59,734 bases of DNA from an uncultured Syntrophales bacterium (GTDB taxonomy: Bacteria; Desulfobacterota; Syntrophia; Syntrophales; JAAYKM01), in NCBI GenBank assembly GCA_964408155.1, contig CAYOYJ010000001.1, positions 1 through 59,734 on the forward strand, in the 5' to 3' direction. Below, piece after piece: positions 12,779-57,385 of the stretch. Made by a program: the position numbers and the translations under genes. The notes under the pieces were generated by a model. That model worked only from the letters and a program-made list of their open reading frames with translations. It had not been told where the DNA came from and did not search any database. Each line of letters begins with the position of its first letter. Within the stretch, counting starts at the first letter, position 1.

Positions 12779-12816
12779 AAAAACCTCCGGGGAAAAGCTG
12801 TTCTCGTTCGCATTGC

Positions 12817-31902: not shown

Positions 31903-31953
31903 CAATGAAACGTCTGAAATGAGACTCAAAAGTTGGTAGGCAAAGGAGTGATA

Positions 31954-34343: not shown

Positions 34344-34356
34344 GCCTACGTCCTGA

Positions 34357-35583
34357 TCATTTATCGAATAAGCTTGGTTGAGCTTCCCTGGCAGCCTCAT
34401 ACTCCTCATAGAGTTTGAGGATAGGCATTCTCTTCTTCACCGTCTTGATAAATTCTGGATTATTCAGCGTTTCGTAAGTGACACCTTTGAAGATTAGCGA
34501 TACTTCTATTTTCTTGAGGTTCCTTTCGGCAGAGCCGAAATGGTCTGTAAGTTCACAATCCAATACCTGTCGAATATCAGCTGCGGACGGTTTTGAAGGT
34601 AAGAATTTTTTCCACCGCTCCGGGGTCTGTGCGATAACAGCCGGAGCAAGCGCATTGACTAGCGCCAAGCGATTATTGTCGATGGCCTTCTGAAGTTTCG
34701 CTTCGAGTTCCTTTTGAAAATCCTCGATGTGTTTTTTAAGTTCCTTTACCGCAGCTTCAAACTCCTCCTTTTTGCTCCTAAGAATGACATTCCCAAAGTT
34801 GGGCAGATTGACTAGAAAATCATCGGCAATCCTTTCCTTGTGTGCAGTAATCTCCTCCCCTGATATCTTGGTATCTTCATCATCAATCAACTGAAATGAG
34901 CTGTGCAGCAGCTTTTTGGTTTTGTCATCCTTTGCCAAGCCAAGCAGGTCGCTCGGTATATTGACCTTCCTTTTGCCGATTTGATGACCTCTTAACTCGA
35001 ATTCTACGAACTCAATTTGTGAATTGAAAACGCGCACCTTTCTGGCAATATCGAACTTCATTGGAGGATTGCGAATCAGATCGTTGGAAGTCTCCATTAT
35101 CTTTGTAGGACTTATGGGATTGGTTCCTACGGTGGCCCCACCTCCGGCCTTTTCAAGACCCATATCTTTGGCGATGTCAGTGGGCACCAAATTTAGTTTA
35201 ACGGCATTCGGGCGAACCGGAGTATCTGAACCACCTTCGATAAGCAATGGCGTTGGCGCATAGAATAGCGTTACATCATCTGCGATCAGCAGTGCAATCC
35301 TTACTCCGGGCTGTTCATGTATTGCACTTCCGAGCTTTCTGGCTTTTTCATTTAATTTTTTGAGGGCATCGATCGTTCCAAAGCCCATCCGACATACTTC
35401 AGGATCAACATCGAGTATGATGTTGATAGCTTCTGGTGGTAATTCGTCCCATTTCCTACAGACAGCCTCGGCTACTGGATCAGACATCCCGGGCGTCATA
35501 TAAACAAGACGTCTCTTGACGCTCTGGATAATTTGGCAAAGATAAGCATCGTCAACGGTAGTGATTGCAGTTGGTTCAGACAT
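34357..35583 (-). CDS. hypothetical protein (408 aa)
   Basis: Intact ORF 21 nt downstream of the 129-aa gene. The N-terminal ~120 aa have a PLD-repeat-like layout without HxK. The C-terminal half is helical and Lys/Glu-rich. Confidence 0.5.
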   Translation of the reverse strand: MSEPTAITTVDDAYLCQIIQSVKRRLVYMTPGMSDPVAEAVCRKWDELPPEAINIILDVDPEVCRMGFGTIDALKKLNEKARKLGSAIHEQPGVRIALLIADDVTLFYAPTPLLIEGGSDTPVRPNAVKLNLVPTDIAKDMGLEKAGGGATVGTNPISPTKIMETSNDLIRNPPMKFDIARKVRVFNSQIEFVEFELRGHQIGKRKVNIPSDLLGLAKDDKTKKLLHSSFQLIDDEDTKISGEEITAHKERIADDFLVNLPNFGNVILRSKKEEFEAAVKELKKHIEDFQKELEAKLQKAIDNNRLALVNALAPAVIAQTPERWKKFLPSKPSAADIRQVLDCELTDHFGSAERNLKKIEVSLIFKGVTYETLNNPEFIKTVKKRMPILKLYEEYEAAREAQPSLFDK

Positions 35584-35604: not shown

Positions 35605-35994
35605 CTAAATCCGGATGCACTTCTGGTCGCCATTCATGAAATATCTTACGCAGCCGGCAGCCTCTAAGATAGCTGCGACGTAGTTACCAATCGCACGGGG
35701 AAAATGGACAGCAGCGCGGGCAACTTCATCTACGCTGTCCTCCGTTGGGATAACCGCATGTTCAGCGGCAATTCGCAACAGACCTGACGGATTATTTCGA
35801 AAATAGGTGTCGACGGCATCAAACATTGCTCGCGGAAGACGATTTGGTGTCTGCGATTTTCCGATTTCGATATCTATGTGCGTTGGGGCGGCACCTGTGA
35901 CGATAAAAGGCCTTTGTCTGCTGGCGGGAATCCCTCTGCCGGGCGTCAGGAGTTGCTGACCGGGGCTTAAATTTGCCATGACCTTATTCCACAT
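35605..35994 (-). CDS. hypothetical protein (129 aa)
   Basis: ATG 35994 lies 6 nt after AGGAGG and 17 nt after the BrxL-like stop. The longer ORF-track start (36051) would overlap the BrxL-like gene. Confidence 0.5.
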   Translation of the reverse strand: MWNKVMANLSPGQQLLTPGRGIPASRQRPFIVTGAAPTHIDIEIGKSQTPNRLPRAMFDAVDTYFRNNPSGLLRIAAEHAVIPTEDSVDEVARAAVHFPRAIGNYVAAILEAAGCVRYFMNGDQKCIRI

Positions 35995-36011
35995 AAGCGC
36001 CTCCTTCTGTG

Positions 36012-38060
36012 TCAATCGGCCTTCAGATAGATAATTTCCGATTCCCGGCATTTTCTTTTCCGTTGGTCTATTTCACTGAGCTCATACTTTGATGCCGGTT
36101 TCTGAAAAATATCCAGCCCGCGACCCGGAATGATTCGCCATCCGTTATCCAAGGCGATGCTTCGATCATGAATGGTCGGATTAAACGCGTAACTGAATTC
36201 AATCCCATGTTTTGCAAGGCTATCCTTTATCTCTTCCAGCTTTTTTGCATTCGTCTGTTCCTGGAAAGAATTTTCGGCAGCCGTTGTTAGGATCAGTTTG
36301 ACCGGCCCGCCCGAGGTGTCAATGACGTTGGTAAAGATCAGAAAATTCCTGATTTGATATTCCATGCGAATATAAGGATCCGTAACATGGATAACGCGCG
36401 CTCCTTTCAGATATGATCCGAAAAGTCGTTGATAGCTTTGTCCCGTTTCACCATCTTGAATACGCACCGTTTTTTCGACAGGTGTTTCAACCCCATCTTT
36501 TTGAGGTTCCGTTATTTCAGTTTGGTGGGGAGCATCAGTCGCTGGCGACAATATGTCGTTCGGTATTGATACGCCTTTTTCCGGCTTTGAATTATCCGCA
36601 TAGGATGGTTTCCTATGATGACTTTGAAAATCATCGGGGAACTTCGAGAGTATTGTAAGCGGGATATATTCCCGATCCAATTTGCATAATTCATCTCTGA
36701 CCCGCTGCCGTAGCTCAATGGCGGGGTTTACGCAATACTGGAAAAAATCTGTGTCAGCCGGTTTCTTATCGGGAAAGAGTATTTTAAGCAGCCCCGTTGC
36801 TCCCGCCTCAATCGCTTTGCTGTCCCGCATATCGTCACAATTGGAAAGCTCCATGTTTGTTTTCACGTAATCGCGATAGCTGATGTCACCCCGTAGCGTA
36901 TGGAGAATTTCTCCGAAGATGTCGCCTTTCAGTCCCAGTGAGACGGATGGGGTTTTTTTGCTGATACGCGGTAGATCCCAGCCGGGCAGCAGTCCCGAGA
37001 ATCGGTCGATAAAAGCCGTCTCTCTTAAAAAATTGGGGAATATTCTAAACAGACCGATGTCCTCGTTTAAGGGTCTTCTGTTTTGGTCAAGGTCGATATT
37101 AGCCAATATGACGATCCCAGCTTCTGCGGTAATCGAACCGGCGCTGCCGCGTCCGAACCGGCCAGCTTCCAGGTAAGATTTCAAGAGGGCCGTCAATTCT
37201 CCTGAACTGTCCGCTTTAACTTTTTGTGCTTCGTCGATGACCACACAGTCATAGCGGGTAATCAAACCGGGCGTCTTTCGGGAATCGTTAAAGAAGAGAA
37301 CCGGTGCCGTGATCGCGCCGGAACGAACAGCCACATAGCGAGACATGTTTTCAAACACAAAGGATTTGCCTGTTCCTTTTGGGGCCAACTCCACCAGATT
37401 GTACCTTGGTTCGACTAAGGAAATAAGCCGAGATATCAGCAGAATCTTTTGCCGTTCGGAATATAGAAGATGGTTAAACCCCATCGAAGAAATGATCAGA
37501 TCGATCCATTCGGATGTCGTAAATGCACTCCGACACTCTGTGAAGTACGCAATATCCACGTTTGCCAACTGGAAAGGCCGAAATTCCCGTGCCCATATCG
37601 CGCCTTTTCCTTTCGTCTTCCCGTCGGACGGCGGCACATAAAAGAGAGATCCCAACCCCCATAAACCGCTGCTCAGCAGCATGTCATTTTCTTGGACAAT
37701 TTGTGGCGTGATGAAAGCGGAATCTTCATCCAAGAAGGGTATGCTTAAATAACGGTCTCCCTTCGCCAAATTTACATGTACTGAGAAATTATCGAGTATT
37801 TTAACTTCCTGCTGCTCATAGAGGTGGTTTTTGATGGTTTCCTTTTCGCTTTTATCCGGGACGTAGGTATGAACGAACTTAGCGATCTTTTGGCGAACCG
37901 CTTCGGTTAAATCGCTTTCACCGGCAATATAGTGCGAGATGATCCATTCCCTAACGTAGGTGGGTATGGCGCGGCTGCCAAAGCCCGCTTGATGGACAAA
38001 GGATTTATTGATGACAATTTCACCGAAGTTCTCCAGTGCTTTTTTCTCAAACGTGTCCAT
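36012..38060 (-). CDS. BrxL-like AAA+ ATPase with C-terminal MIT_C/PLD-like domain (no evident Lon protease domain)
   Basis: N-terminus FGEIVINKSFV...RAIPTYVREWIISHYI and the AAA+ core LVELAPKGTGKSFVF, CVVIDEAQ and ITAEAGIVILANI are BrxL-like. The C-terminus VTDPYIR...HGIEFSYAFNPTIHDRSIALDNGWRIIPGRGLDIFQKP resembles MITD1 MIT_C. Confidence 0.7.
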   Translation of the reverse strand: MDTFEKKALENFGEIVINKSFVHQAGFGSRAIPTYVREWIISHYIAGESDLTEAVRQKIAKFVHTYVPDKSEKETIKNHLYEQQEVKILDNFSVHVNLAKGDRYLSIPFLDEDSAFITPQIVQENDMLLSSGLWGLGSLFYVPPSDGKTKGKGAIWAREFRPFQLANVDIAYFTECRSAFTTSEWIDLIISSMGFNHLLYSERQKILLISRLISLVEPRYNLVELAPKGTGKSFVFENMSRYVAVRSGAITAPVLFFNDSRKTPGLITRYDCVVIDEAQKVKADSSGELTALLKSYLEAGRFGRGSAGSITAEAGIVILANIDLDQNRRPLNEDIGLFRIFPNFLRETAFIDRFSGLLPGWDLPRISKKTPSVSLGLKGDIFGEILHTLRGDISYRDYVKTNMELSNCDDMRDSKAIEAGATGLLKILFPDKKPADTDFFQYCVNPAIELRQRVRDELCKLDREYIPLTILSKFPDDFQSHHRKPSYADNSKPEKGVSIPNDILSPATDAPHQTEITEPQKDGVETPVEKTVRIQDGETGQSYQRLFGSYLKGARVIHVTDPYIRMEYQIRNFLIFTNVIDTSGGPVKLILTTAAENSFQEQTNAKKLEEIKDSLAKHGIEFSYAFNPTIHDRSIALDNGWRIIPGRGLDIFQKPASKYELSEIDQRKRKCRESEIIYLKAD

Positions 38061-38069
38061 AATGCTCTC

Positions 38070-40427
38070 CTACTCCAGATCATCGAAGGCGCTTTTGCCC
38101 TTTGTTTCGACCATGGCGCGCATTGTGATCGGCATCGTGACACTTTGCTCGTGCCGCTCATCATGACAGGTGAATCGAATGTGGAGGGTCAGGTTGTTTC
38201 TTTCATCAGCATTAGTCGTCTGTTTGAATTGGGCGGTCATTTCCACCAGGCCCTTATTTTTTCCGTTTAACAAGTCGATCGTTATCTGATCCGTTTCGAT
38301 ATTGGAATTGATGACCGATATACAGATATTTTCGATAGCAAACTCATTGGGATTGCCGATCTCCAGAGCAATCGTTTCCTTGCGATAGCGGAATTCTTTA
38401 GTTGCCAAGAGTAGTGTAAGATCCCGGAGAGGCGCTTTGGCCGCTTCAAAGATCAGATAGGGCACAACGACCTCTTCTGGAGATAACCCGCCGTGGGTAT
38501 AGGAATTGTCATCCGTCTTTGAAAAACGATTACCCCGTCTGGCACTCAGGTAATGGCTGGCATTTCCAAATTCTGTAGCATCCAAAAAGAAACAGTCCTC
38601 TTTCCAATTTTCCGGAAGACTGGAGAATCTCTCGTTTGAAACAGCGATATATCGAGGCGAGCGGATGGTGAATTCTGTGCTTTCAAATCCAGAAGGATCG
38701 AGGTCGTTGGCAATTTCCGCGGGAATTGTCGTGGAGCCGTGATCTGTGAGCACGTGAATCGCAATCTTTTTTTTCAGATCATGCTTATCAATGAATTCGG
38801 CAATCGTTTCTACGAAACCTTCGAGGAGGCTGCTGATGTACTTCAGATGCGGCATCCCGATCTGATCAGACGACATGTGTAGGGCTTTGTCTATAGCCAG
38901 GTAATTGACAACATAGGTATGCCCGGTTATTTTTCCGATATCAGACAGCTTGCCTGGATCGCTGATATACTGAAAAGTCGCGTCGTTGAAATAGGGGACC
39001 CAGCCCTTTTCTATGATGTTCTTGTATGTCTTGTTGTCTATGTCATTGTATGTAGGTGTGCCGGCGAGCAAACATTTTTTGGAAATTTCTGTTTCTGACG
39101 GCAACATCGATAGGTAAGGTTCTACTTTGGAGAGAAAGAAACCATGCATCTGGAAAAGGTCCTTGATAATCGGGACGAGCCCCCACCATAGATTGTCAAT
39201 GACGAGAACCAGATTGATGCTTTCATCCGATTTTAACCGGTCAGCGTTGTTCGGAAGGATGTTAAAAACCATCCTTTTGGAATTTGCGTGTATATCCTGC
39301 CATTTGCTATAGAGCCATTGAGAAAACTCGTCGGCAAGTTTATAGATTCCCTCATTCATCTTGTTGTTCGAAGCGCACCAGGTCTGATAGGGCAGATAGA
39401 ATTGCGTTGCCCATGTTATCATTTGGTCGAGATCCCAGGTTTTATCAGGCTGAGACGGAAGGGGTGGTTGGACAAGGCCTTTCAGCGCTTTAAGACGCCT
39501 CCCCACACGATCCTGAAGCGCTTCAAATTTCACATCCACGGCATTGATGATGTCTGCGGTAATCCAGTCAGGCTGACTCTTGAGAATCTTTTCCACCGTT
39601 TCAAATTCAGTGACCAGATAACCGCTCATATTGGAAATGAGGGCTTCCATTTCCGCCACATTCGCAGGTACCTGGTATGCATTCAGGATGTAAGTTATTT
39701 GGGTAACAATATCTTTTATGCCGGATTCGTCGATGCTCACTTTCGACAAATCAGGCTTCAGTGATTCAAGAATAGAAAAGTCATCTCCCATCAGTTTATG
39801 CCCCAGGGCTTTATAGGACCTGAGGACTTTGTATTTCATCAACTGATCTTTGAGGGCATCTACATCCGTAGAGAACAAGTCTATCAGCCGTCTGAGATCG
39901 GAACTTTTGGCCTTTGTTTTCCATTCGGCTAATCGCTTTGAATAGATTCCAGAAATAAGCGGATTCTTTGTGTTGGTATCCCACTTTGTGGAATCATAAG
40001 CCGCAAGAAGGACGCCCAATTTCGCAAATGGGAAGGTTTTCCCGGTAAAGAGAGGATGGTAAAAGTGATCCAGAATAACGTTGTCAAAGTGCGCCCCCTT
40101 GGGTGGGGATATATCCAACTCCAGCAAGCCGGCTGCGACGATCTCCTCATTGGATATCTCTTTTGGTATGGATATGCCCCAGATCTCTTCCAAACGACAG
40201 CGCGCGTCGATGCATTCGATTTTGACGCTTTCCTTGGGATAGCGACCGGACATGTGCACAAACCATTGCATAACCGTCGCATCGCGAACGTAGAGGGTTA
40301 TATCGCGGCCCTCAGCAAGAGCTTTCAGGATTTTAACGTAAGCTGATACGTATCCCGCTATGGATGAAACCACGTCATCCTCAGCGGTTGACACCAGTCC
40401 ATTCAAATCCTCAATCAGCCTAATCAT
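38070..40427 (-). CDS. pglZ: PglZ-domain alkaline-phosphatase-fold protein
   Basis: LVLVIDNLWWG, HVLTDHGST and YTHGGLSPEEVVVPYLIF are PglZ hallmarks. 785 aa. The start overlaps the brxC stop by 8 nt. Confidence 0.85.
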   Translation of the reverse strand: MIRLIEDLNGLVSTAEDDVVSSIAGYVSAYVKILKALAEGRDITLYVRDATVMQWFVHMSGRYPKESVKIECIDARCRLEEIWGISIPKEISNEEIVAAGLLELDISPPKGAHFDNVILDHFYHPLFTGKTFPFAKLGVLLAAYDSTKWDTNTKNPLISGIYSKRLAEWKTKAKSSDLRRLIDLFSTDVDALKDQLMKYKVLRSYKALGHKLMGDDFSILESLKPDLSKVSIDESGIKDIVTQITYILNAYQVPANVAEMEALISNMSGYLVTEFETVEKILKSQPDWITADIINAVDVKFEALQDRVGRRLKALKGLVQPPLPSQPDKTWDLDQMITWATQFYLPYQTWCASNNKMNEGIYKLADEFSQWLYSKWQDIHANSKRMVFNILPNNADRLKSDESINLVLVIDNLWWGLVPIIKDLFQMHGFFLSKVEPYLSMLPSETEISKKCLLAGTPTYNDIDNKTYKNIIEKGWVPYFNDATFQYISDPGKLSDIGKITGHTYVVNYLAIDKALHMSSDQIGMPHLKYISSLLEGFVETIAEFIDKHDLKKKIAIHVLTDHGSTTIPAEIANDLDPSGFESTEFTIRSPRYIAVSNERFSSLPENWKEDCFFLDATEFGNASHYLSARRGNRFSKTDDNSYTHGGLSPEEVVVPYLIFEAAKAPLRDLTLLLATKEFRYRKETIALEIGNPNEFAIENICISVINSNIETDQITIDLLNGKNKGLVEMTAQFKQTTNADERNNLTLHIRFTCHDERHEQSVTMPITMRAMVETKGKSAFDDLE

Positions 40428-43400
40428 GCGCGATCTCGCTCAATATCTTTGAAGTCATCTCTTCAAGCTCCGTAGTATCTACGGTGCCTGCCTCCGTGAG
40501 CTCTTCAAACAGCGACCTGACAGTGATTTTCGCTCCCTCTTTATCTTTCGGGAAGATGAAATTAATTACCTCATCCCCAAGGACACGCTGGCGTGCCCTT
40601 TTGATCTTGTACTTCTGCAATTCATCTATTGCCTGGATGGTTTCTATCTTTCCATAATTACCCTTGTCATCGACGACGACCAGTTTTAAGGTTCGGTTTC
40701 CCTTTACAGTTAAAATCTGGCCGGGTTTTAACTTTTGGCGTTCGCTCGCTTTATCTGTTGGATCCGCACCATTATCTGTAAAATAAATCGCGCCCTTTCC
40801 ATCTTCTGCAACACCAGTAATTTTCAATTCCCCTTTATAATAGACTTGGTTTCCTTTCTGACTTTCAGCGTTTTCATAAGTGACCTTGAGACGACCTATT
40901 TTGGGAGCATTTTTTTCAATATGCTCCTTCCCCCGTTTGATTTTGTTTATGTAGTCCGAAACCAAATCGGCGCTCCAGTTTGGCACCGCATTCAGACCAT
41001 AGGCATCAGGTAAAGCGCTGAACAGCGTGTCTCTGATATTGACCAGCTTATCCAGTTTAAGAATAAGCGGCTTGCTGTCATTGTTGTGGAAGGGGCTCAG
41101 CGCATCTTTCTGAATGCTGGTTAAACTATCTTTGAACCATGTCTTGATGGCTTCCTGAATATCAACATCCAAAACGCTGGGGCTTGCATAAATCTCGGCA
41201 ACCTGCTTCAGGATGTCATTCTGGACGGCTTCCAGAATTCCCTGCGCAGTGTCTTTGAAACTGGACAAGCGTGAGTCTATTTGGGCAAGCTTCTTGGCGG
41301 TGATCTTTTCACCGGGAATGATGTCAAGCAATTCCAGGAGGTCGTGTTTGATGAAATTAAAGGGATCTTTGGTCTTGGTTTGATTCAATGCCGTCACGAA
41401 GGGTTTGTCCTTGTCTTGATAAAAGTTCTCGGATCGGGCAATGATCGGCAGCCCTTGCCACCATTTGGTCACGGCCTGGAAGGCGTCGCCCAGGTTGTAT
41501 GTCTTCCCGGCCGGTACCGGATCAACACTGAAGATTTGAAAGACTTTGGTGAAATAGGCCTTATCCTCCTGACTGACGGGTTCAAAGAGGATGATGGCGG
41601 TTTTTTCCTGACCCGTAACCAGGTTGATGACTTGGTCCATGTCGGTAAACGGTAAGTCCGTCAGGGCATCCTTTTCCCTTTTAAAGCGTAAGCTGTCCCC
41701 ATAAAAACGTCTTGCCAGCAACACCATGAGGGTCATGGCAATTTCTCCCTGGCCATAGCTTTCATAGAAGGGTTGCAAAAAGGGCCAGCAAAGCGTTGCG
41801 CCTTTGCCTTGCAGTGCATCAAGATCCTCTAATAGCTTCACGAAGGCCGGCAGTTGGGTTTTGAATTTGTCAAAATTCTGTTCTGCCTCGTAATACCGGA
41901 TGTCGCCTTCCGTGTTCAGGAGGCGTAAGACCTGGTTATCCACAAAACATTTTCGCAGATAGCGCGTTCCCCCGCGATTGTCCGGCCATGCCCAGTTGAT
42001 CTGTATAGTCTGACTCAAATCCAGCAGAATTTTCCCGGCATCCTGCAAAATGCTGCGAACTTGACCGTCGATCTTCAAATGGGACCGGTTGAATTCCGTA
42101 TGCGAAAAAGTATTGCGCTTACTTGCGTACAATGACTCCATGAGTTTGCTGGAAACATCATGCTTTTTGGTGTCATTCACCGGGATATTGGCGCCACCGA
42201 TCCCAAACCACTCGACACGCGCATTGCTGAAATATGCACCCTTGGCATCTGCCAATAGCCCGTTGGCCGTCTTTCTTGATTCACTGATCTGGATATTTTC
42301 ATAAGGCCCAAAACTTTCGGCTTCTTTCGACTTTTGGATATGTTCAAGCGCCTTTAGCGTAAAGATGGGATCAAATACGGCTATTGGGGTGCGCGGAATC
42401 GCTAAGACAACCCTTTGCTGATCGTTTTTGACAATCGTCTTTTTGGCCTGCTCGATATCTTGATCGTTTTCGCAAAAGACATATAAGGCCGTCCCTTCAT
42501 AACCGCTCTTGCCATACCCCTCGTCGTTGCGCTGGCTCTCCAGCCATGCAAAGTAGGAAACATCCTTGCCGTTCAATGTGTGCTTTGAATCGATCATGGA
42601 TGGCGTTGCAAAAACCACGCGGAGCCGTTTATCCTCGTAATATGTACTGTTATAGTCTTTAGCTTCGAGATAAATTTCGTCGCTCTTGAGGGGATTGAGG
42701 GATAGAAAATGTTCAAGGATATTGGCTGGTCGATTATCGGGATTGGCTTTGTATTGTTCAATGAGGCGGTGGATATCTTTCCGCTCGCCGCGCATCAGTT
42801 CATAAATCCCCTGATTGTTATATAGGATACCTGCTTTGCAGAGCGTCTGAAGCCGGCTTTCCACCATGGTTTTTTCCGTCTCACTCACGGCATGCAAAGC
42901 AAATTGGATGTTCTGCATGGTGTTGGTGATGCGCAATTCATCCGTACTGATCATTTCATGGATAAGGATGACCTTGAGGATCCGCAGCATGAGGTCGTCT
43001 GTTTCCTCAAAAAGCTTCCCCTCGTCTTGCCTGGCGATGTATGTATTGAGCTCTCGCAGCGTGGCTTCATAGTTCACAACAGCCGTCTTGACTCGATCGA
43101 CAAGCTTGCGGTTATCGATCGACAAGCCGTCTTTGAAGTAATCCACCAGTATGTCTGCCGTGTATAGCACCAGGCGCTTCTCGCGCAGAATGTCATTGTG
43201 CTCGATAAACCATGGATAAGAATATTCCTGGACGTTCTTCCATCCCTCTTCCCCGGTCTCAAACTCGGGAGAGAAAAATTTGAATACCGAACGATTGTCA
43301 GATCCGGCTTCCAGTGCCAGCCGGAGCAGGGCGTAAATCGCCAGCGGATGCATCGGGTAGATATTCTCGATGATATTGTTTTTGACTTTGGGCGCCGGCA

Positions 43401-44547
43401 GCCAATTGAAAAGTCCCAGCCGTTTGCATTCGCCGGACAGGAAAGTGAAAGTACCTGCTTGCGGTACAACCTGCTTTAACCAAGCGTCTTCCTCTTTTTT
43501 CGGCTGTACGATTGCGGCGATAATATCTTCCATTCCCTGAGTCTGTAGCGGAATCTCTGTCACGCGCGCCTCAAGGGTGCTGTAGTGAACGGCGTCTCCC
43601 ACCTGGCCATGATTTCGAAAGGCTTTATGCCCCGTGCCGATAAAGATCAGGGGCAGGTGTTCCATACCGCTGTTTGCGCAGAACTGGGCGAAATTGTGCA
43701 ACCGGCTTAAGTTGACCAGGCCGTCGTCCAGGGCATAACCCAACTCATCGTATAAAATGACCAGCCCTTTGAATTTCTTCTTAAATGTCGAATTGGTTAA
43801 AATGTCTTTCAGGATATCCTGGAGATTGTCTTTCTTGAACGCAAAATCAGTATCCGTGACGACGGCAAAACAGGCTTTGAAAACCTTCAGCGCCTCTTCG
43901 TCGCGCTTTTTCAAACCGTCCTTCAGGTCATTGATCGTCCAACCGCTGTATCGTTTCGCCAGGGCAGCGCCCAGGTCGGAAAAGAACCTTTTATCGCTTT
44001 TCTGTTTTTCCCAGTCCTTGATGCGTCTCAATGCCTCTTGGTAATGGCTATCCAATTCGAAGTCCGCCTCTTCTTTCTGCAAGGCCTCTTCGATCGCGCG
44101 TAGCACTGCGCCCTCGAACTCCAGGTTCAAATCAAAACGGCAAATGGCCACCAGAAAACGGCCGGACTTGCGCGATGCCTTCAACGAAGATGCGGCGCGT
44201 TCTTTGAGGATTTCCCCAGGCTTTAAAAGGACCTGTTTTTGCGCCGTCTCGTAATTCTGAAAGAAGGTGGTCATTTCAGGCAGGTCGCTGGGGGAAGCGA
44301 AGTAATTCGCCAGCATCAAGAGCAGATGAGATTTGCCGGTTCCATAACTGCCGGACAGAAAATAGAAGCGGCGGTCTTTGGGATTCAATGAGCCGGCAAT
44401 TTTTTCAAATGCAAGGCGGTGAGCGGTAATCGGCTGATAGCGCTCCATCCGCACGCGGTTTTTCTCCAAGCTATAATACTCGTTCACCAAGTCCACGTAG
44501 CTTGTATAGCCGCTGTTGATTTGAATGATGTCGCGAATTTTACTCAT
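40420..44547 (-). CDS. brxC: BrxC/PglY-like P-loop NTPase (1375 aa)
   Basis: Walker A FLSGSYGTGKSHLLL about 70 aa from the N-terminus and Walker B LVILYDELGY. Giant size and a position immediately upstream of pglZ. Confidence 0.75.
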   Translation of the reverse strand: MSKIRDIIQINSGYTSYVDLVNEYYSLEKNRVRMERYQPITAHRLAFEKIAGSLNPKDRRFYFLSGSYGTGKSHLLLMLANYFASPSDLPEMTTFFQNYETAQKQVLLKPGEILKERAASSLKASRKSGRFLVAICRFDLNLEFEGAVLRAIEEALQKEEADFELDSHYQEALRRIKDWEKQKSDKRFFSDLGAALAKRYSGWTINDLKDGLKKRDEEALKVFKACFAVVTDTDFAFKKDNLQDILKDILTNSTFKKKFKGLVILYDELGYALDDGLVNLSRLHNFAQFCANSGMEHLPLIFIGTGHKAFRNHGQVGDAVHYSTLEARVTEIPLQTQGMEDIIAAIVQPKKEEDAWLKQVVPQAGTFTFLSGECKRLGLFNWLPAPKVKNNIIENIYPMHPLAIYALLRLALEAGSDNRSVFKFFSPEFETGEEGWKNVQEYSYPWFIEHNDILREKRLVLYTADILVDYFKDGLSIDNRKLVDRVKTAVVNYEATLRELNTYIARQDEGKLFEETDDLMLRILKVILIHEMISTDELRITNTMQNIQFALHAVSETEKTMVESRLQTLCKAGILYNNQGIYELMRGERKDIHRLIEQYKANPDNRPANILEHFLSLNPLKSDEIYLEAKDYNSTYYEDKRLRVVFATPSMIDSKHTLNGKDVSYFAWLESQRNDEGYGKSGYEGTALYVFCENDQDIEQAKKTIVKNDQQRVVLAIPRTPIAVFDPIFTLKALEHIQKSKEAESFGPYENIQISESRKTANGLLADAKGAYFSNARVEWFGIGGANIPVNDTKKHDVSSKLMESLYASKRNTFSHTEFNRSHLKIDGQVRSILQDAGKILLDLSQTIQINWAWPDNRGGTRYLRKCFVDNQVLRLLNTEGDIRYYEAEQNFDKFKTQLPAFVKLLEDLDALQGKGATLCWPFLQPFYESYGQGEIAMTLMVLLARRFYGDSLRFKREKDALTDLPFTDMDQVINLVTGQEKTAIILFEPVSQEDKAYFTKVFQIFSVDPVPAGKTYNLGDAFQAVTKWWQGLPIIARSENFYQDKDKPFVTALNQTKTKDPFNFIKHDLLELLDIIPGEKITAKKLAQIDSRLSSFKDTAQGILEAVQNDILKQVAEIYASPSVLDVDIQEAIKTWFKDSLTSIQKDALSPFHNNDSKPLILKLDKLVNIRDTLFSALPDAYGLNAVPNWSADLVSDYINKIKRGKEHIEKNAPKIGRLKVTYENAESQKGNQVYYKGELKITGVAEDGKGAIYFTDNGADPTDKASERQKLKPGQILTVKGNRTLKLVVVDDKGNYGKIETIQAIDELQKYKIKRARQRVLGDEVINFIFPKDKEGAKITVRSLFEELTEAGTVDTTELEEMTSKILSEIAHD

Positions 44548-44556
44548 GGCGTGCTC

Positions 44557-45036
44557 CTATACCAGTTCGTTAAACTCCTCTAACCGATGGACCCGACGAT
44601 CTCCGTGCGAATCGGTGATCTTCAGTGCTTCAATCTCATCCGAGGTTTGCAGACAAAAGATCAAAGTGGCGCCCATAGTTCCTATAAAAGAATTCCATTG
44701 CTTTTCGATCATGCGGAAAAAAGCCTGCCGTTCAGTTTTACGCCATGTATCCAGGAGAAAATCGGCGCGATCCACAATAAACAATTTTTCTCCTTTCGAT
44801 TTATCCTGCAGGAGGGCCTTGAACTGATCGGGATTGAAGCGATCCACTTCTGCGGACAACTCTGTATCGGCCTGGAAGTATCCGAGAACATCAAGATAGC
44901 CGCCTCCAATCTTTTCGTGGATCTGACTGGCAAATTGCCTCAAGGCGGTATCGGATTGCGGCCTTGCATGGATGATAATCGCTCGGAACTTTTCCTGTCC
45001 TAATTTTGTGAGACATTCTTTGATATTAAAGCCCAT
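44557..45036 (-). CDS. small BREX-associated protein of unknown family (159 aa)
   Basis: Sits 9 nt upstream of brxC, the position of BrxB/BrxF in known BREX types. Walker-B-like KLFIVDRAD is present but there is no intact Walker A. Confidence 0.5.
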   Translation of the reverse strand: MGFNIKECLTKLGQEKFRAIIIHARPQSDTALRQFASQIHEKIGGGYLDVLGYFQADTELSAEVDRFNPDQFKALLQDKSKGEKLFIVDRADFLLDTWRKTERQAFFRMIEKQWNSFIGTMGATLIFCLQTSDEIEALKITDSHGDRRVHRLEEFNELV

Positions 45037-45039
45037 TTT

Positions 45040-45852
45040 TCATTTCCCATAAAGCCGGTAAAGGACCTCGGTGAGTGCCAGCTCTTCAGAAAACCGCACC
45101 TGATCCAGATCGCCGAACTGCTCCCATCGCACCAATCCGCTGTCGTGCAATCGGTTTAGCAAGTCTCGAAACATATATTCCGGGAGATTCAGCACCGCAC
45201 CGGGGCTGTCCTTTCCCTTTTCAATCTCTTCGATGGGTAAGGCGCTTGCGGAAATGGCGTGCATTTCCCTGAAATGAAGCAACTGATATAGGAAAGCCAG
45301 TGGTGGAATGTCCACTGGCGTATCCCTATGATAGACACCCGTTTGCTCCTTGTGCAGCAGGTTAAGTCTGGACAGAGATGAATGAACGTAAGATTGGAGC
45401 ACGGCCCCAATCTCACCCGGCAACTTTGCCTTGAGCGTTCGTTCGGAGAAGGAAGATTTCAGGTCTGAAAAGTAAGGCAACGCCACGTCGGAAATGACGA
45501 TGCGATCATTGATGGGGAGGATCTGATTGACGATACGGTACCAGACTACCCATTCCGGATTGCTCGATATGATGTAATGAACAATCCACAGCGTCTCGAT
45601 GCGCTCAAAGTAAACGTCCTTTTCCGCGAGGATCTTTCCCAGAGGTGTAAGGATGGATGTCCGAGGCTTAAGCAAACCAAAGCCGACTGATACGCTGATG
45701 AGGCTTTCCACTTGTCGGTCCGAGAGGCCCAAGGTTGCCACTATTTCCTGCCGGGGAATTTTCTTGCGGCTTCCCGTCGTCAACAGATATTGCAGTATGC
45801 GGGAGATCTGGTCGAAACGGACGTGATAGCCGTTGGTTAATTGTAGTTTCAT
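45040..45852 (-). CDS. DUF4007-like protein (270 aa)
   Basis: N-terminal wHTH-like segment (IPRQEIVATLGLSDRQVESLISVSVGFGLL), FERIETLWIVHYIISS, SPGAVLNLPE and a terminal LYRLYG follow the DUF4007 pattern as I remember it. Ends 3 nt before the next gene. Confidence 0.55.
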   Translation of the reverse strand: MKLQLTNGYHVRFDQISRILQYLLTTGSRKKIPRQEIVATLGLSDRQVESLISVSVGFGLLKPRTSILTPLGKILAEKDVYFERIETLWIVHYIISSNPEWVVWYRIVNQILPINDRIVISDVALPYFSDLKSSFSERTLKAKLPGEIGAVLQSYVHSSLSRLNLLHKEQTGVYHRDTPVDIPPLAFLYQLLHFREMHAISASALPIEEIEKGKDSPGAVLNLPEYMFRDLLNRLHDSGLVRWEQFGDLDQVRFSEELALTEVLYRLYGK

Positions 45853-45895
45853 ATATTCAACTCAATCTTATCGACGTTATTAGCGAATCATCCCT

Positions 45896-48800
45896 CTAAT
45901 TATGCTTTATTAATTCTCTTTCGTCTTCATCCAAGTTATACATATCAAATATCATTTTATTCATTTCACTTTCATATTCAGTAACGTTGCTCGACCTATC
46001 TTTTTGTTTTTCTAATAGTATTTTATCAATCAGTTTTATTAATATTTTCTTCTCTTGAGAGGATAATTTTTTCATCGGCAAGTTATTGATCATTTCTTTT
46101 GTGAAACTTATTCCTCCATTGTAACTTGCTGCAGAATATCTTTGCTTTATATAAAAAATATATATCTTCGAATTTAGTAGCGCTAAAAGACACTTTAAGT
46201 CATCGATTTGGTCGCTCGTTATTATCATCGTTGATTTACCTGGAATTATTGTCCCATCATCATCCAAACAAGCATCAAGTAACGTGAGTCCTTTGATAAT
46301 AATTTTTGGTTTTATGGATTTTTTTGAGTATGTATTTTTAAATAATTGGAAAAAATCGTCCTTTTCAACTACTGGAAAAAGATATTTATCCTTTAAATAT
46401 GTCATGCTTTTAAAACCCCATCTGGATACATATTTATCTATTGTGCCGGTGTTTATAATCTTCAAGTGTTTTTTATTGTTAAAATATGAATCACTTTCTA
46501 AATCATATATGATCTCTTTAAGCTTATATGCATCAGAGGTTGCACATGCATTTTCACAAAGGGGGAATAACTTACTTAGTGCGATTGAATCTTTTTCTAT
46601 TTTACTGATCAATCCTAATGAATCGGAAAATAGCACGTCCAGTGCATAAGGCGGTGCTAAAATACTTTTATTTACAGTTCGCTTAAAATCAATCTTTGCA
46701 TCCTTACTAGAGAATATAGTTATCTCATCAGTTTGTTTGTTTGTAAACTTAGTCACTATTGAGTCAACTTTTGAAGTTTCAAAAACGCCTCTTCCGACAT
46801 CAAATATGCTGTTAATGTTGCGAAATAGAATCCTTCGCAATTCATCTCCAAATGGTTTTGATATCCATTTATCAGGAGTAATAAAACTCAGCATGCCATT
46901 ATGAGATAACATTTTAAAACCAATCTCCATAAAAGCTATATAGATATCCCAGTTACCTTTCGTCGTTGCATATCTTTGAGATATAAAATCTCTTAAGTAA
47001 CCTAACCCAGATTGGACCATATTTTCGGAATCTAAATAAGGTGGATTACCAATAACAACATCAAATCCTAGATTTACGAAAAATGTCTCAGGGAATTCTA
47101 ATTCCCAATGAAAATATGAGGCCATATTTGGGAGGGGAATAATGGCTTCGCTGTCAACTAGCTCCTTATACTTCCATTCACTTATCTCGTTTCCGAAGTA
47201 GATGCTGGTATGCATGTCGCAAACCAGTTTGTAGGGCTTCAAAATGTCATCAATCTCGTCAAGCCAGGCTTTTTTATCGGCAATAACATCAAGCGTCGCG
47301 GAATCGGTGGATGTAATTCGGGTATAGTTCGAAATTGCCCTGCCCACAGCCTGCTTGAAATCCCTGTCATCGGAGAAGACGGAGTGTTGCTTTTTCTCTG
47401 CTTTGCCGGGATATTTGCCGATATCATCCAAACGTGCGCCAATCAGAGAATTGCCGGTCTTCAGTCTGTGATTAAGGAAGGATAGCGGCTTCTCTTTGGA
47501 CATGGAAAGAATCCAGAGAGAAAGTTTAGCCAGCTCGACGGCTAACGGGTTGACATCAACGCCGTAAACGCAGTTTTCCACGACCCAGCGCCGCCAATGC
47601 GTGGTCGAGGTATCGGTTGTTCCGATTATTGCGCATTCATTCAGAATCTCTGTAATGAAATTCGCTATGTAATTTGAGGTGTTCACCAGGAAGTGCCCGC
47701 TGCCCATCGCCGGATCGAGCACGCTGAGTTTCAGGGCTTTCTCTCTTATAAACGTCTTCAAATTGTCCTCTAACAATTCGGTTAGGGCTTTTCGCTCCTT
47801 TTGATCGATGGCCTTGCCTACAGCGCTCAAAAGGTCTTTCTGTTCCGCCAGAAAATTCTGCCGCAATTGTGAAAGCTTTTCTCCGACCGTGTTGCGCACG
47901 ATGTAATCGACGATGTATTCGGGCGTATAATATGAACCTGTCGCCTTTCGTTCACTGCGATCACTTCCGAAATAGACCTGTCCTGCCGGAATGTATCGTC
48001 CGGCGACGATCTTTCCGCCTAGTGACGCCGGAATGAATTGAATCTTGTCTTTTGCCGCACGAACCTCCGTATCTTCCTTGGTAATAAACAATTTATGCTC
48101 CAGCAATCCTTCATAGAGTGTGCCCAGGTGTCGCACGCTCATATCCCGATAGCTGATGGCTTTTTCCTCCCCTGATCGTTCCTGGTAGGATGTCAGGTAA
48201 TGAAGGGCGGAGGCCAGATGACTGTTGTTGACGCGCGACTCTTCGATGAACTGGGTAAATTCACTTTCATGGGGGTCAAACAGACCGCCGTTGTAGCTCT
48301 GGTCAATATCGACGAAGATGCGTTCCAGGTCCTCCCAAATGCTGTAGCCTGAAGCAGACGTATTATTTGCGGAAGATGCCTTGCTGCGCCGGAGAACATC
48401 TTTTAGCAAACTGCTGTTTGTTTCATTCAGCAGGCCGCGCGCGTCGGCATAAAAGAGAAAAAGCAACCGGAACATATAGAGCATGGCGCCGTGATAGATC
48501 TTCCGTCGCAGGTCGTCGTCATCGAAATTGGGAGATCCGCTTGACTTTAGGAATTCCACATATCCCATACACAGGTTGGAAAGAACGCCTTTGCCGCCTT
48601 CTTCCTTTTGCCTCAGGGCATTGGCCAGTTCGCTTTCAATATAATCAATCTTCGCCAGGGACTCTTTCTTGAACACGTCAAGGCGGCATTGCCCCAGTTC
48701 GCCGGTGGTGAAGTTCTCCACTTTCATAAACTTGTGGAAGATCTGATAAGCCTGCGATGCACTGTCCGATAGGATGGCGGCAAGATTCATTTCGAGGAAG

Positions 48801-49231
48801 ATTTCATAGGGCGTGGATTCGTCGAGATGGTACATTCTCCACTGTTCGCCGTTGGTCAATAGGCCCCATTTAAGATTGTGATGGCGCAGGCTGCGGATGA
48901 CCTTTTCAGCCCAATTTCGGCCCATCGTGGTGTTATCCAAATCTTCCGTGGGCAGCAACACGTAGCAAAGGGTGATCGGCGTCTCTGTATCTCCGACAGG
49001 ATAAAGCAGGGTCAGCCTTTCATTTTCTATTTTAATGTTGAAACGAAGGGCATACAGCACCTCATGGACAAATGACTCTTTCCACTCCTGGATGGTGGCG
49101 GTCCGGGCAAATTCTCGATATTCTTTTAACGTGATCAGTGATGCCAGGATTTCCGTGTCTTCAGGTTGCTGCGTGATTTCCTGGAGGTATATCTCGGAGA
49201 AGAGGTATTCGTTCCGGTAGTAGGTCGTCAT
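45896..49231 (-). CDS. pglX: PglX-type (type IIG-like) N6-adenine DNA methyltransferase
   Basis: GSYYTPEYIVDYIV, VLDPAMGSGHFLV (motif I), YGVDVNPLAVELAKLSLW, VVIGNPPY (motif IV) and a long C-terminal TaqI-like specificity region. 1111 aa. Confidence 0.85.
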   Translation of the reverse strand: MTTYYRNEYLFSEIYLQEITQQPEDTEILASLITLKEYREFARTATIQEWKESFVHEVLYALRFNIKIENERLTLLYPVGDTETPITLCYVLLPTEDLDNTTMGRNWAEKVIRSLRHHNLKWGLLTNGEQWRMYHLDESTPYEIFLEMNLAAILSDSASQAYQIFHKFMKVENFTTGELGQCRLDVFKKESLAKIDYIESELANALRQKEEGGKGVLSNLCMGYVEFLKSSGSPNFDDDDLRRKIYHGAMLYMFRLLFLFYADARGLLNETNSSLLKDVLRRSKASSANNTSASGYSIWEDLERIFVDIDQSYNGGLFDPHESEFTQFIEESRVNNSHLASALHYLTSYQERSGEEKAISYRDMSVRHLGTLYEGLLEHKLFITKEDTEVRAAKDKIQFIPASLGGKIVAGRYIPAGQVYFGSDRSERKATGSYYTPEYIVDYIVRNTVGEKLSQLRQNFLAEQKDLLSAVGKAIDQKERKALTELLEDNLKTFIREKALKLSVLDPAMGSGHFLVNTSNYIANFITEILNECAIIGTTDTSTTHWRRWVVENCVYGVDVNPLAVELAKLSLWILSMSKEKPLSFLNHRLKTGNSLIGARLDDIGKYPGKAEKKQHSVFSDDRDFKQAVGRAISNYTRITSTDSATLDVIADKKAWLDEIDDILKPYKLVCDMHTSIYFGNEISEWKYKELVDSEAIIPLPNMASYFHWELEFPETFFVNLGFDVVIGNPPYLDSENMVQSGLGYLRDFISQRYATTKGNWDIYIAFMEIGFKMLSHNGMLSFITPDKWISKPFGDELRRILFRNINSIFDVGRGVFETSKVDSIVTKFTNKQTDEITIFSSKDAKIDFKRTVNKSILAPPYALDVLFSDSLGLISKIEKDSIALSKLFPLCENACATSDAYKLKEIIYDLESDSYFNNKKHLKIINTGTIDKYVSRWGFKSMTYLKDKYLFPVVEKDDFFQLFKNTYSKKSIKPKIIIKGLTLLDACLDDDGTIIPGKSTMIITSDQIDDLKCLLALLNSKIYIFYIKQRYSAASYNGGISFTKEMINNLPMKKLSSQEKKILIKLIDKILLEKQKDRSSNVTEYESEMNKMIFDMYNLDEDERELIKHN

Positions 49232-49264: not shown

Positions 49265-50062
49265 TTAATTTACGTTCAGCTTATCGACGATTTCTTTTTT
49301 TATGAGGACATAGGCCTCCTGGACATCATATATCGCGTCTGCAGGCAGCAAGGGGTTCAGATCGCTGAGGAAGCCTCGATGCCTCAGTTTCTCCTGCAAA
49401 TTCTTTTCATAATGCATGCTGTCAACGGTTTGGCCTTCGGTCTCCATGTATTTTTTGAAGACATGGATTATTCTGCCGGCATCAGCTTTCCCTTCCGTGA
49501 CACCCAGCCACAAATCGAAAAGATCACGCCCTTTTCTCCTTTGATACAAGGCCCTCAGTTTCGTCGCGAGCAGTTCTTCCAGTGTATAGGTCGTGATCTC
49601 ACACCCACCTTTGAACCATCGGGACTCCACGCCAAACGGTTGTTTCTGATAGCCTTCCACCGCGAAATGTTCTCGCGTGTTGATTTCAACTTTCAGTCGT
49701 ATTTGCACGACCGGAGGCCCCTCCGATTCCATGCGATAGGTCAATATGACCGATTGCTCCGTTTGCTTGCGCCGCGGCGCTCCCAGAAAGCCGTTCAACA
49801 GCTCCTGGAGGGAATCAATGACCTGCCCGATCGGCGCGGGGATAATTTGCACCAGGTCAATGTCTTCCGAATAGCGCCGCGGAATATCGAAGTAGAGCTT
49901 GTGCAACGCTGTGCCGCCCCGAAAGGCCAACCGCTCCGCCAGCAAGGGGCTCTGAAAAATGGCGACAAGCGCCCTGCTGATGATCAGGTCCTGTTCCACC
50001 TGGGCATCGTTGACCCAGGGTGCAAACCGACGCCAAGCGACTATATCCGCCTTGGGAATCAC
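49265..50062 (-). CDS. abiEii: AbiEii/AbiGii-family nucleotidyltransferase toxin
   Basis: FRGGTALHKLYF...RYSEDIDLV is the DUF1814 NTase signature. A 4-nt overlap joins it to the upstream AbiEi-like gene. Confidence 0.85.
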   Translation of the reverse strand: MIPKADIVAWRRFAPWVNDAQVEQDLIISRALVAIFQSPLLAERLAFRGGTALHKLYFDIPRRYSEDIDLVQIIPAPIGQVIDSLQELLNGFLGAPRRKQTEQSVILTYRMESEGPPVVQIRLKVEINTREHFAVEGYQKQPFGVESRWFKGGCEITTYTLEELLATKLRALYQRRKGRDLFDLWLGVTEGKADAGRIIHVFKKYMETEGQTVDSMHYEKNLQEKLRHRGFLSDLNPLLPADAIYDVQEAYVLIKKEIVDKLNVN

Positions 50063-52723: not shown

Positions 52724-52769
52724 TCGGGGGCTGTCCGGGGGGTGAATCTCAATGAAAGGAGGATCGGTT

Positions 52770-53804: not shown

Positions 53805-53960
53805 GCTGTCTGGGGGTGAAGGGAGGTGATGCGATGGAGCTGAAGGAATCGGAAAGGGTCAAGAAGGACGAAGCGGGAAAGAGGATTCTATGTATCGGCA
53901 AAATTCACAAAGGCAGAAAAACCATGATTTTTGCCTTTCCACGGAAAGGAGGAAACGAAG

Positions 53961-55322: not shown

Positions 55323-55416
55323 CAGACTGTAAGCCCTCGTCACTCCTTCGCCGGGAGGGAGCAGAAGATCCCTCCCGGCAGGGGGAGACAGGGGCGCTGA
55401 TGGAAGGAGAACGACC

Positions 55417-57330: not shown

Positions 57331-57385
57331 CCCATCGGCCGGGGTGGACAGGAACACTATCCCGGCCTGATTCAAAAAGGGCGGC

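Follow-up and report, generated by a model that had tools for sequence, protein, structure and literature searches.

Which kind of bacteriophage exclusion (BREX) system is formed when the hallmark BREX proteins are encoded together with a DUF4007 protein and a DNA methyltransferase? The question is raised by a contig of an uncultured Syntrophales bacterium (assembly GCA_964408155.1, contig CAYOYJ010000001.1, positions 1 to 59,734), whose whole 59.7-kb length is referred to here as the window. The original prediction, made from the letters of the DNA, had described a BREX-like operon that fits none of the six described BREX types, and had proposed that a methyltransferase takes the place of BrxP, the 3'-phosphoadenosine-5'-phosphosulfate (PAPS) reductase of type 4, on a type 4-like backbone. 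Database, structural and synteny comparisons indicate that the system is clearly a BREX, and a real, widespread and unnamed one, since no name for its architecture was found in the literature searched. Judged from sequence comparison, the locus is quite probably an intact member of a subtype composed of a type 4-lineage chassis and a PglX-like N6-adenine methyltransferase, which takes the place of the PAPS-reductase/cysteine-desulfurase modifier.

The locus lies on the minus strand, where nine consecutive co-directional open reading frames (ORFs), all of them present as announced, run from 49231 down to 33561 and code for proteins of 1111, 270, 159, 1375, 785, 682, 148, 408 and 282 aa. The first six (49231-36012) are separated, in order, by +43, +3, +9, -8 and +9 nt, and all are full length relative to their homologues. 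With the starts of the longest ORFs, the genes for the 148-aa and 282-aa proteins overlap their upstream neighbours by 40 and 53 nt, although the internal start called in relatives (giving a 129-aa product) would leave a gap of about +17 before the former, and a comparable internal ATG, picked by eye, one of about +13 before the latter, so that the range of -8 to +43 nt first given for the whole series is reasonable. The notion of a single operon is drawn solely from spacing and conserved synteny, and a simple scan for promoters and terminators gave nothing above shuffled expectation. Spacing is compatible with one unit of nine genes, but only the first six are conserved as a set, which coincides exactly with the interval 36012-49231 initially delimited, and the last three are accessory.

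Membership of the BREX superfamily, in the definition given by Goldfarb and colleagues in 2015, reportedly depends on a PglZ-domain protein encoded beside a large P-loop ATPase of the BrxC/PglY type. This is the arrangement of the window, where the pglZ gene adjoins brxC with an overlap of 8 nt. BrxC (40420-44547, minus strand, 1375 aa) is a BrxC/PglY-type P-loop ATPase of the SspC/type 4 BrxC lineage, with GSYGTGKSH as Walker A and ILYDE as Walker B. In PADLOC it matches SspC (1.4e-17) better than BrxC (1.2e-5), and it obtains 19.5 bits against the NCBIfam BrxC model, whose cut-off is 400. In a tblastn search of 72,556 plasmids it retrieved its own family and SspC, the latter in a cyanobacterial Ssp locus, and never a canonical type 1 BrxC, though 318 of those plasmids carry BrxL.

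PglZ (38070-40427, minus strand, 785 aa), a metalloenzyme of the alkaline-phosphatase fold and the presumed effector or nuclease subunit, contains both DHGS and HGGLSPEEVVVP in its translation, and D411, S444/T446, D562-H563 and H645 are invariant in its family. It matches the NCBIfam BREX PglZ models of types 3, 4 and 5 weakly (28.9 bits with the BREX-4 model NF033445, short of the cut-off of 140), reaches 17 bits with type B (cut-off 400) and does not match type A. The profile of its family recognises the PglZ domain of PorX (7e-8) and the PglZ structure 9ZN5, and more than 174 clusters of full-length homologues, 46-92% identical, were found.

The third hallmark, BrxL (36012-38060, minus strand, 682 aa), begins with a DNA-binding region, continues with an MCM-like AAA+ ATPase and ends in a domain of the PLD/HKD-like (MIT_C) class. 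Its assignment as a BrxL-type ATPase is borne out by the TIGR02688 equivalog (433 bits, cut-off 329), by the Pfam families BrxL_N, BrxL_ATPase (3e-95) and MIT_C (2.8e-42) and by PADLOC BrxL over the full length (1.8e-133). The Pfam and TIGR02688 values, like those given below for Eco57I and DUF4007, lie far outside what chance would give. The C-terminal domain carries an HxR...D motif (IHDRSIALD), is kept in the clade of Anaerolineae, Clostridiales and Ignavibacteriales and has 34% identity with the C-terminal part of a Rhodococcus BrxL of type 1. A tblastn search with this domain found no match in relatives with a short BrxL, a form present in two distant members of the subtype (L026 and L029). 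The BrxL-HKD fusion has been reported as specific to type 1, the BrxL of type 4 being short and devoid of a C-terminal extension (PMC12839542). Plasmids of Deinococcus and Meiothermus that bear BrxL were considered as relatives and rejected, their gene contexts being unrelated.

If X stands for the methyltransferase, A for the DUF4007 protein, B for the 159-aa protein, C for BrxC, Z for PglZ and L for BrxL, the survey of gene order shows the six-gene set recurring in about 100 loci of genomes and metagenomes (Anaerolineae, Syntrophaceae, Clostridiales, Ignavibacteriales and a plasmid of Abditibacteriota) in two fixed orders. A scan of one genome per species yielded 23 loci with the set, mostly from Anaerolineae (Leptolinea, Levilinea, Pelolinea, Bellilinea and Flexilinea), the others belonging to a metagenome-assembled genome (MAG) of Syntrophaceae (89%, probably of the same lineage as the window), a Clostridiales MAG, Ignavibacteriales and Melioribacteraceae. 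In tblastn comparisons of the window proteins with these loci, the methyltransferase, the DUF4007 protein, the 159-aa protein, BrxC, PglZ and BrxL travel together. The order A-B-C-X-Z-L, found in Leptolinea tardivitalis and most Anaerolineae, is that of type 1 (brxA-brxB-brxC-pglX-pglZ-brxL), and the order of the window, X-A-B-C-Z-L, is found also in a 92%-related locus (L002), the Clostridiales MAG, the Abditibacteriota plasmid pIAD-21 and one distant metagenome locus. That pglX leads the operon is therefore true of the window, but a second arrangement recurs as well.

A metagenome scan with the N-terminus of BrxC gave at least 320 relatives, and synteny was read from the best 80 of them, which range from 97% to 37% identity. 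Twenty-three of these 80 loci have the order X-A-B-C-Z(-L), 13 the order (A-B-)C-X-Z(-L), and another 13 are cut by the contig end yet contain the methyltransferase; the loci with no detectable methyltransferase nearly all end close to the side where it would lie. This co-occurrence argues that the methyltransferase is an integral subunit of a system whose six genes are conserved as a unit and occur in two syntenic forms. In Leptolinea and Pelolinea, among others, brxC and pglZ flank the methyltransferase gene, and this placement within the operon likewise points to a subunit instead of a neighbouring system. Three contigs that carry distant members of the small-subunit family are too short to show the modifier. 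Neither a PAPS reductase nor a cysteine desulfurase was found within 10 kb in any of the 80 metagenome loci, and in the window tblastn of four PAPS reductases and two desulfurases gave no match, nor was a PAPS_reduct domain detected in the nine proteins.

The methyltransferase (45896-49231, minus strand, 1111 aa) is a gamma-class N6-adenine DNA methyltransferase, PglX-like by role, with a TaqI_C-type C-terminus. It matches the Pfam families Eco57I (1.7e-35), MmeI_Mtase, N6_Mtase and TaqI_C, its motif I is VLDPAMGSGHFLV and its motif IV GNPPY, both conserved in orthologues; these motifs, like the others quoted for BrxC and PglZ in the original prediction, are all present in the translations. 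Sequence searches of the PDB returned BseCI, PglX (8C45) and TaqI. Residues 1 to about 720 are conserved across 13 orthologues, followed by a variable C-terminus that corresponds to the target-recognition domain (TRD). The N-terminal domain is MmeI/PglX-like; across 14 aligned orthologues it has a conserved WGLLTNGxxWRIYH block and, as far as a reading of motifs goes, no conserved D...ExK nuclease motif, and it is probably not a nuclease.

Compared with its counterpart in L002, the window enzyme is 84% identical over residues 1-810 and cannot be aligned beyond them (the replaced TRD region spans 45896-46800 in the window and 2865-3671 in L002), whereas the other five operon proteins are 92-98% identical. 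Such a replacement between near-identical operons is typical of an active specificity subunit and points to recent specificity switching. Two other identities were considered for this enzyme or its locus and rejected: DISARM, suggested by a match to DrmMI, for which no DrmA, DrmB (DUF1998) or DrmC (PLD) was matched among the nine proteins, and a type IIG restriction-modification enzyme of the MmeI kind, given that, by motif reading, no conserved N-terminal D...ExK nuclease motif is seen.

The two genes between the methyltransferase and brxC are those noticed at first in place of BrxA-like and BrxB-like ORFs, none of which had been seen. By hidden Markov models (HMMs) this holds: DUF1819 and DUF1788 were not matched in Pfam, NCBIfam or PADLOC, so that the 270-aa and 159-aa proteins are assigned to neither BrxA nor BrxB, and tblastn of canonical BrxA and BrxB against the whole window gave no match either. 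By fold and position it does not hold, because the DUF4007 protein and the 159-aa protein fill both slots, and in most relatives their genes stand exactly where brxA and brxB would in an A-B-C-X-Z-L operon. The DUF4007 protein (45040-45852, minus strand, 270 aa) is a predicted DNA-binding protein of the multi-winged-helix SspB fold. Its DUF4007-like character, noticed beforehand, is supported by Pfam DUF4007 (1e-19) and PADLOC SspB (5e-15), and its AlphaFold2 model (pLDDT 91) has the SspB crystal structure 6LB9 as best Foldseek match (E 1.8e-8, TMq 0.78). In related loci its gene is always immediately upstream of that for the 159-aa protein. SspB is the best non-self structural neighbour of BrxA (PMC9240713), and DUF4007 has been described as BrxA-like (PMC12839542); on the strength of the modelled SspB fold and of the slot, and not of an HMM, the DUF4007 protein is taken as the BrxA counterpart. 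A protein search with the DUF4007 profile, aimed at BrxP fusions, was filled by close relatives.

The protein in the BrxB slot (44557-45036, minus strand, 159 aa) appears to be a standalone AAA+/STAND-like P-loop core (STAND, signal transduction ATPases with numerous domains) that, as had been noted from its translation, lacks a Walker A: HARPQSDTA is found at that site, and a Walker-B-like hhhhD strand and a conserved DFLLDTW motif are retained. It has no match in Pfam, NCBIfam or PADLOC, and a sequence search of its profile against the PDB returned only noise. Its AlphaFold2 model (pLDDT 91) has an alpha/beta core like those of AAA+ proteins and of the origin recognition complex (ORC), and the best Foldseek matches are ORC subunits and AAA+ ATPase cores (probability 0.99, E 1e-3). 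A profile search of 1.84 billion representative proteins gave 145 relatives (clusters at 50% identity), roughly 40-170 aa long except for a single one with 283 aa, with no fusion to a large protein among them. BrxB has been described as an inactive STAND/ORC-like NTPase, an AAA+ core devoid of Walker A, and by modelled fold class and gene position the 159-aa protein would be its counterpart; that equivalence is drawn from these two features, homology by profile methods being unsupported. Distant members of the family retain a Walker A of the form GxxxxGK[ST] and match Pfam AAA_22, AAA_16 and nSTAND. An intact Walker A (GPPLSGKS/T) is seen in the homologues at L026 (5918-6403) and L029 (10001-10462) and is lost in the clade of the window, so that one orthologous slot holds both apparently active and inactivated NTPases.

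The kinship of this six-protein set was examined with reference loci from annotated plasmids: two of type 1, from Escherichia coli pPK8568 (L028) and Rhodococcus pdjl-6-1 (L027, with a BrxL-HKD), and three of type 4, from Methanosphaera (L035, where BrxP is fused and PglZ is annotated as BREX-4), Thermomicrobium roseum NC_011961 (L034) and Pseudanabaena galeata pPg_05 (L037). The last two are split, that is, they code for a PAPS reductase, a standalone DUF4007 protein, a small protein of 142-166 aa, a giant ATPase, PglZ, a short BrxL and a cysteine desulfurase, and the PglZ of T. roseum (WP_012642882.1) is listed as type 4 in PMC12839542 (Suppl. S3). In pairwise BLASTP, four of the window proteins (BrxC, PglZ, the DUF4007 protein and BrxL) are closer to type 4 than to canonical type 1. 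For BrxC the values are 1e-11, 2e-10 and 8e-7 with the type 4 references and 0.02-0.6 with type 1, and, when it is aligned with type 4 BrxC, Walker A and B, R328, W356 and the PxHP and RS motifs prove to be shared. For PglZ they are 7e-7, 2e-5 and 0.02 against 0.2-0.8, and the DUF4007 protein matches type 4 references (3e-8 and 2e-4) and no type 1 DUF1819. BrxL obtains 298-311 bits with the split type 4 loci, 243 with Methanosphaera, 277 with Rhodococcus, where the alignment includes the HKD domain, and 208 with E. coli.

The split type 4 loci also have the order modifier-DUF4007-small protein-BrxC-PglZ-BrxL. They are the best BLASTP match outside the family for the DUF4007 protein and BrxC, and for PglZ and BrxL they come just below a locus of Annamia dubia (plasmid pANN4383.02, 7775-13416, L036). 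This similarity ranking and the split loci of identical order support the earlier proposal that a methyltransferase stands in for BrxP on a type 4-like backbone. The differences are in the modifier, which in the split loci is a PAPS reductase with a cysteine desulfurase (phosphorothioation) and in the window a PglX-like methyltransferase expected to form N6-methyladenine; in BrxL, of 474-482 aa there and with a PLD/HKD domain here; and in the small proteins, which bear no significant sequence similarity to the 159-aa protein. The window shares with type 4 in general the DUF4007 module and the SspC-like BrxC, although it departs from the type in its modifier (BrxP and no methyltransferase in type 4), in scoring under the NF033445 PglZ cut-off and in not having a short BrxL. 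The Annamia locus itself codes for PglZ (8e-19) and a short BrxL (39% identity) after a 662-aa protein instead of a giant BrxC, with no DUF4007 protein or methyltransferase annotated nearby, and may be another BREX-related arrangement.

Two further systems share components with the window. Like SspABCD, it has a DUF4007 protein of the SspB fold and an SspC-like ATPase; unlike it, the locus lacks SspA, SspD and an SspE-type effector, has PglZ, BrxL and a methyltransferase, and codes for a DUF4007 protein of 270 aa where SspB, which has nickase activity, has about 345. The BREX-related capture (BRC) systems resemble it in PglZ, a BrxC-like ATPase, DUF4007 and a small STAND NTPase, and also in the intact Walker A of distant members of the 159-aa family. 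BRC is defined, however, by HerA/FtsK, GNAT and TGT components and lacks a methyltransferase and BrxL (PMC12839542), and a scan of the nine operon ORFs and of other ORFs of the window revealed neither HerA/FtsK, GNAT nor TGT.

The six core proteins correspond one-to-one with those of type 1 BREX (A-B-C-X-Z-L), with the same functional slots and, in many relatives of the window, the identical order, and this correspondence gives rise to the strongest competing explanation, that of a highly diverged type 1 system whose proteins have drifted beyond current HMMs and that has no special tie to type 4. As in type 1, the methyltransferase belongs to the Eco57I/PglX class and has a variable TRD; PglX 8C45 is its best match among solved structures of large methyltransferases, BLASTP with E. 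coli type 1 PglX gives 2e-17, and some type 1 systems have the BrxL-HKD fusion reported as specific to them, to whose C-terminus in Rhodococcus that of the window is related. Such an origin is nonetheless unlikely. In type 1, BrxA is a DUF1819 and BrxB a DUF1788 protein, neither of which is detectable in the window, where DUF4007 stands in place of DUF1819; BrxC finds SspC and no canonical BrxC among the BrxL-bearing plasmids; BrxC, PglZ and DUF4007 rank type 4 above type 1, the similarity of BrxC and PglZ to type 1 being at the level of motifs (E 0.02-0.8); and the NCBIfam type 1 cut-offs are missed widely by BrxC, PglZ and PglX (119 bits for the latter, cut-off 500). Gene order is divided, the window having X-A-B-C-Z-L and relatives in Anaerolineae and 13 metagenome loci the A-B-C-X-Z-L of type 1. 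In part, the choice between this explanation and a type 4-lineage subtype is a question of naming. Several results weigh against the latter. The ranking of type 4 over type 1 comes from few reference loci and pairwise BLAST and not from a phylogeny; five of the six core proteins fail the curated BREX HMM cut-offs, BrxL alone passing, and the Pfam PglZ match is sub-threshold (18.9 bits, cut-off 25); the best PADLOC models of the methyltransferase are DrmMI (1.8e-81) and then type IIG, both outscoring the PglX models; no BrxB structure is among the top 50 Foldseek matches of the 159-aa model; and no sequence relationship of the 159-aa protein with BrxB (DUF1788), or with the small proteins found in split type 4 loci, reaches significance. 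DUF1788 is matched neither by it nor by 58 members of its family, hhalign with two BrxB sequences gives a probability below 1%, and the profile of the 58 members, compared by hhalign and hmmsearch with canonical BrxB and the small proteins of the split loci, gives no significant match, the alignments being colinear, which in itself is no proof of kinship.

The DrmMI and type IIG matches could also be read as the mark of two independent neighbours, a solitary methyltransferase of the type IIG/IIL kind beside a decayed, modifier-less remnant of type 4 BREX. Unrelated systems often lie side by side in defence islands, of which the window is one, and for a similar cyanobacterial neighbourhood, in Fischerella, with brxL, brxZ, sspB and a methyltransferase, the last has been deemed possibly independent (PMC12914056). 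This is very improbable here, since the methyltransferase is found with the other five genes wherever a locus is long enough, whatever the phylum, and at one of two fixed places, of which one lies within the operon; its N-terminus varies along with the system, its identity (30-58%) following that of the other subunits, its N-terminal domain has no nuclease motif, and all six ORFs are intact. Scarcely any more credit can be given to a chassis that is still phosphorothioation-dependent, whose PAPS reductase (SspD/BrxP) and cysteine desulfurase would come from another part of the genome, with the methyltransferase as an add-on. DUF4007 and SspC-like ATPases are otherwise known from phosphorothioation systems only, and housekeeping desulfurases can substitute in such systems (PMC12839542), yet no PAPS reductase is encoded in the 59.7 kb of the window or within 10 kb of the 80 metagenome loci, and the methyltransferase is always present. 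A type 4-lineage chassis with a methyltransferase as modifier is the explanation that best accommodates these observations.

For that subtype a mode of action can be proposed by analogy, and its methylation, target motif, defence activity and subunit contacts are all inferred in this way. As in type 1 BREX, the methyltransferase, with its specificity set by the C-terminal domain, would methylate one adenine in an asymmetric motif of the host DNA, presumably in complex with BrxC and the small subunits. The same assembly of methyltransferase, BrxC and DUF4007 protein might recognise incoming DNA that carries unmethylated motifs, whose replication would then be blocked by the putative PglZ metallo-nuclease and BrxL. 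PglZ has been characterised as a nuclease that depends on metal and associates with BrxB in a sub-complex (PMC12205998), and here it would probably be partnered with the 159-aa inactive STAND protein, as PglZ is with BrxB in type 1. BrxL, an ATP-dependent DNA-binding ring (PMC10164562), would act as a DNA-loading AAA+ ring, to which a nuclease-like PLD/HKD domain is added in this case.

There is as yet no settled account of how BREX restricts phage. DefenseFinder, PADLOC and NCBI annotation all routinely apply the classification in six types. DUF4007 has been treated as a component of type 4 or BRC, and type 4 as devoid of a methyltransferase (PMC12839542), and in the literature searched DUF4007 is tied to BREX only alongside a PAPS reductase (PMC12839542, PMC12914056). 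Among type 4 taxa, DUF4007 is found in 97% and a PAPS reductase in 89% (PMC12839542), a difference which suggests that some members of the methyltransferase-bearing subtype may be silently binned there. The subtype is common in anaerobic and sediment or sludge lineages, with Leptolinea tardivitalis YMTK-2 and Pelolinea submarina MO-CFX1 as cultured carriers; in the latter the locus is at about 2.86-2.88 Mb of the complete genome NZ_AP018437.1. The only plasmid record inspected, pIAD-21, labels each of the six genes "hypothetical protein", and, together with the five proteins that fall under curated cut-offs, this indicates that the prevalence of BREX in these phyla is probably underestimated.

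One defence chassis appears to work with two different self-marks. Its association with two unrelated modification chemistries amounts to a natural module-swap experiment, which allows a test of which subunits read the self-mark, and the TRD exchange between near-identical operons supplies ready-made specificity variants. A broader idea, held tentatively and at somewhat less than even chances, is that the chassis of DUF4007, small STAND protein, BrxC, PglZ and BrxL is indifferent to the chemistry of the self-mark, the reading of self and non-self residing in the interchangeable modifier subunit. On this idea the subtype would be an evolutionary bridge between type 4 and type 1, and the 159-aa family would, in addition, capture the origin of the BrxB-like inactive STAND subunits.

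Downstream of brxL there are three genes on the minus strand with a narrower distribution. The first (35605-36051, 148 aa as the longest ORF) has no family matches and is found only in L002, L003 and the contigs identical to the window, its product being of 129 aa in L002 and in two of the three identical contigs. The second (34357-35583, 408 aa) has no significant family matches and is conserved only in L003 (89%) and the identical contigs. The membership of the third in the system (33561-34409, 282 aa) is doubtful: its presence beside the system is essentially unique to the window, with just fragments in L003, and its sole match is a weak one, in NCBIfam, to an uncharacterised domain of a MobB fusion, Pfam giving none.

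The G+C content of the operon region is 45-48% compared with 58-63% in the flanks, as expected for an acquired island, and the window as a whole is a mosaic of mobile and defence genes. Directly upstream of the methyltransferase gene and co-directional with it lies an AbiEii toxin (PF08843, 2e-37) with its AbiEi antitoxin (PF09407, 4e-34) at 49265-50874 (minus strand), and a 96% identical AbiEii gene occupies the same position in L002. On the other side and convergent with the operon, a 945-aa DEAD/DEAH helicase (archaeal-type helicase domain 4) and, after it, a 494-aa protein that matches no family (29065-33417, plus strand) may together be another defence module. A pair resembling a cyclic-oligonucleotide-based antiphage signalling system (CBASS) is encoded on the minus strand by a SMODS/DncV-like cyclase (7831-9009) and a patatin phospholipase effector (8999-9982), with a small SEC-C-motif protein (7104-7841, minus strand) just downstream. 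A distant member of the subtype, that of L029 (metagenome contig ERZ27233565 k141_785173), is also found beside a CBASS (SMODS and SAVED) and a HTH/M78-peptidase pair, in the stretch 1-4293 of L029, and there a gene of the uracil-DNA-glycosylase family comes after brxL.

Between 10902 and 21075 the window contains a low-GC mobile block that resembles the arrangement of an antibiotic-resistance cassette. Its first part consists of a group II intron reverse transcriptase/maturase (10902-11867), a LinB-like lincosamide nucleotidyltransferase (11966-12886) and a PNP/UDP phosphorylase (12817-13575), and its second part of an IS91-family Y2 transposase (14232-15578), a pterin-binding, dihydropteroate synthase/sul-like gene (17015-17827) and the IS21 genes istA (19609-21075) and istB (18948-19649), the IS91 and IS21 elements flanking the lnu-like and sul-like genes. 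At 52752-59192 (plus strand) there is a phage-like recombination and replication module with a PD-(D/E)XK nuclease, an AAA_24 protein, an SMC/AAA_23 ATPase, a replication protein O-like gene and a DnaC/IstB-like loader, so the defence island may sit beside or within a prophage. The higher-GC part of the window includes on the plus strand a clostripain-family (C11) peptidase (778-2010) and a B12-binding radical SAM enzyme (5738-7057), both probably of the host backbone.

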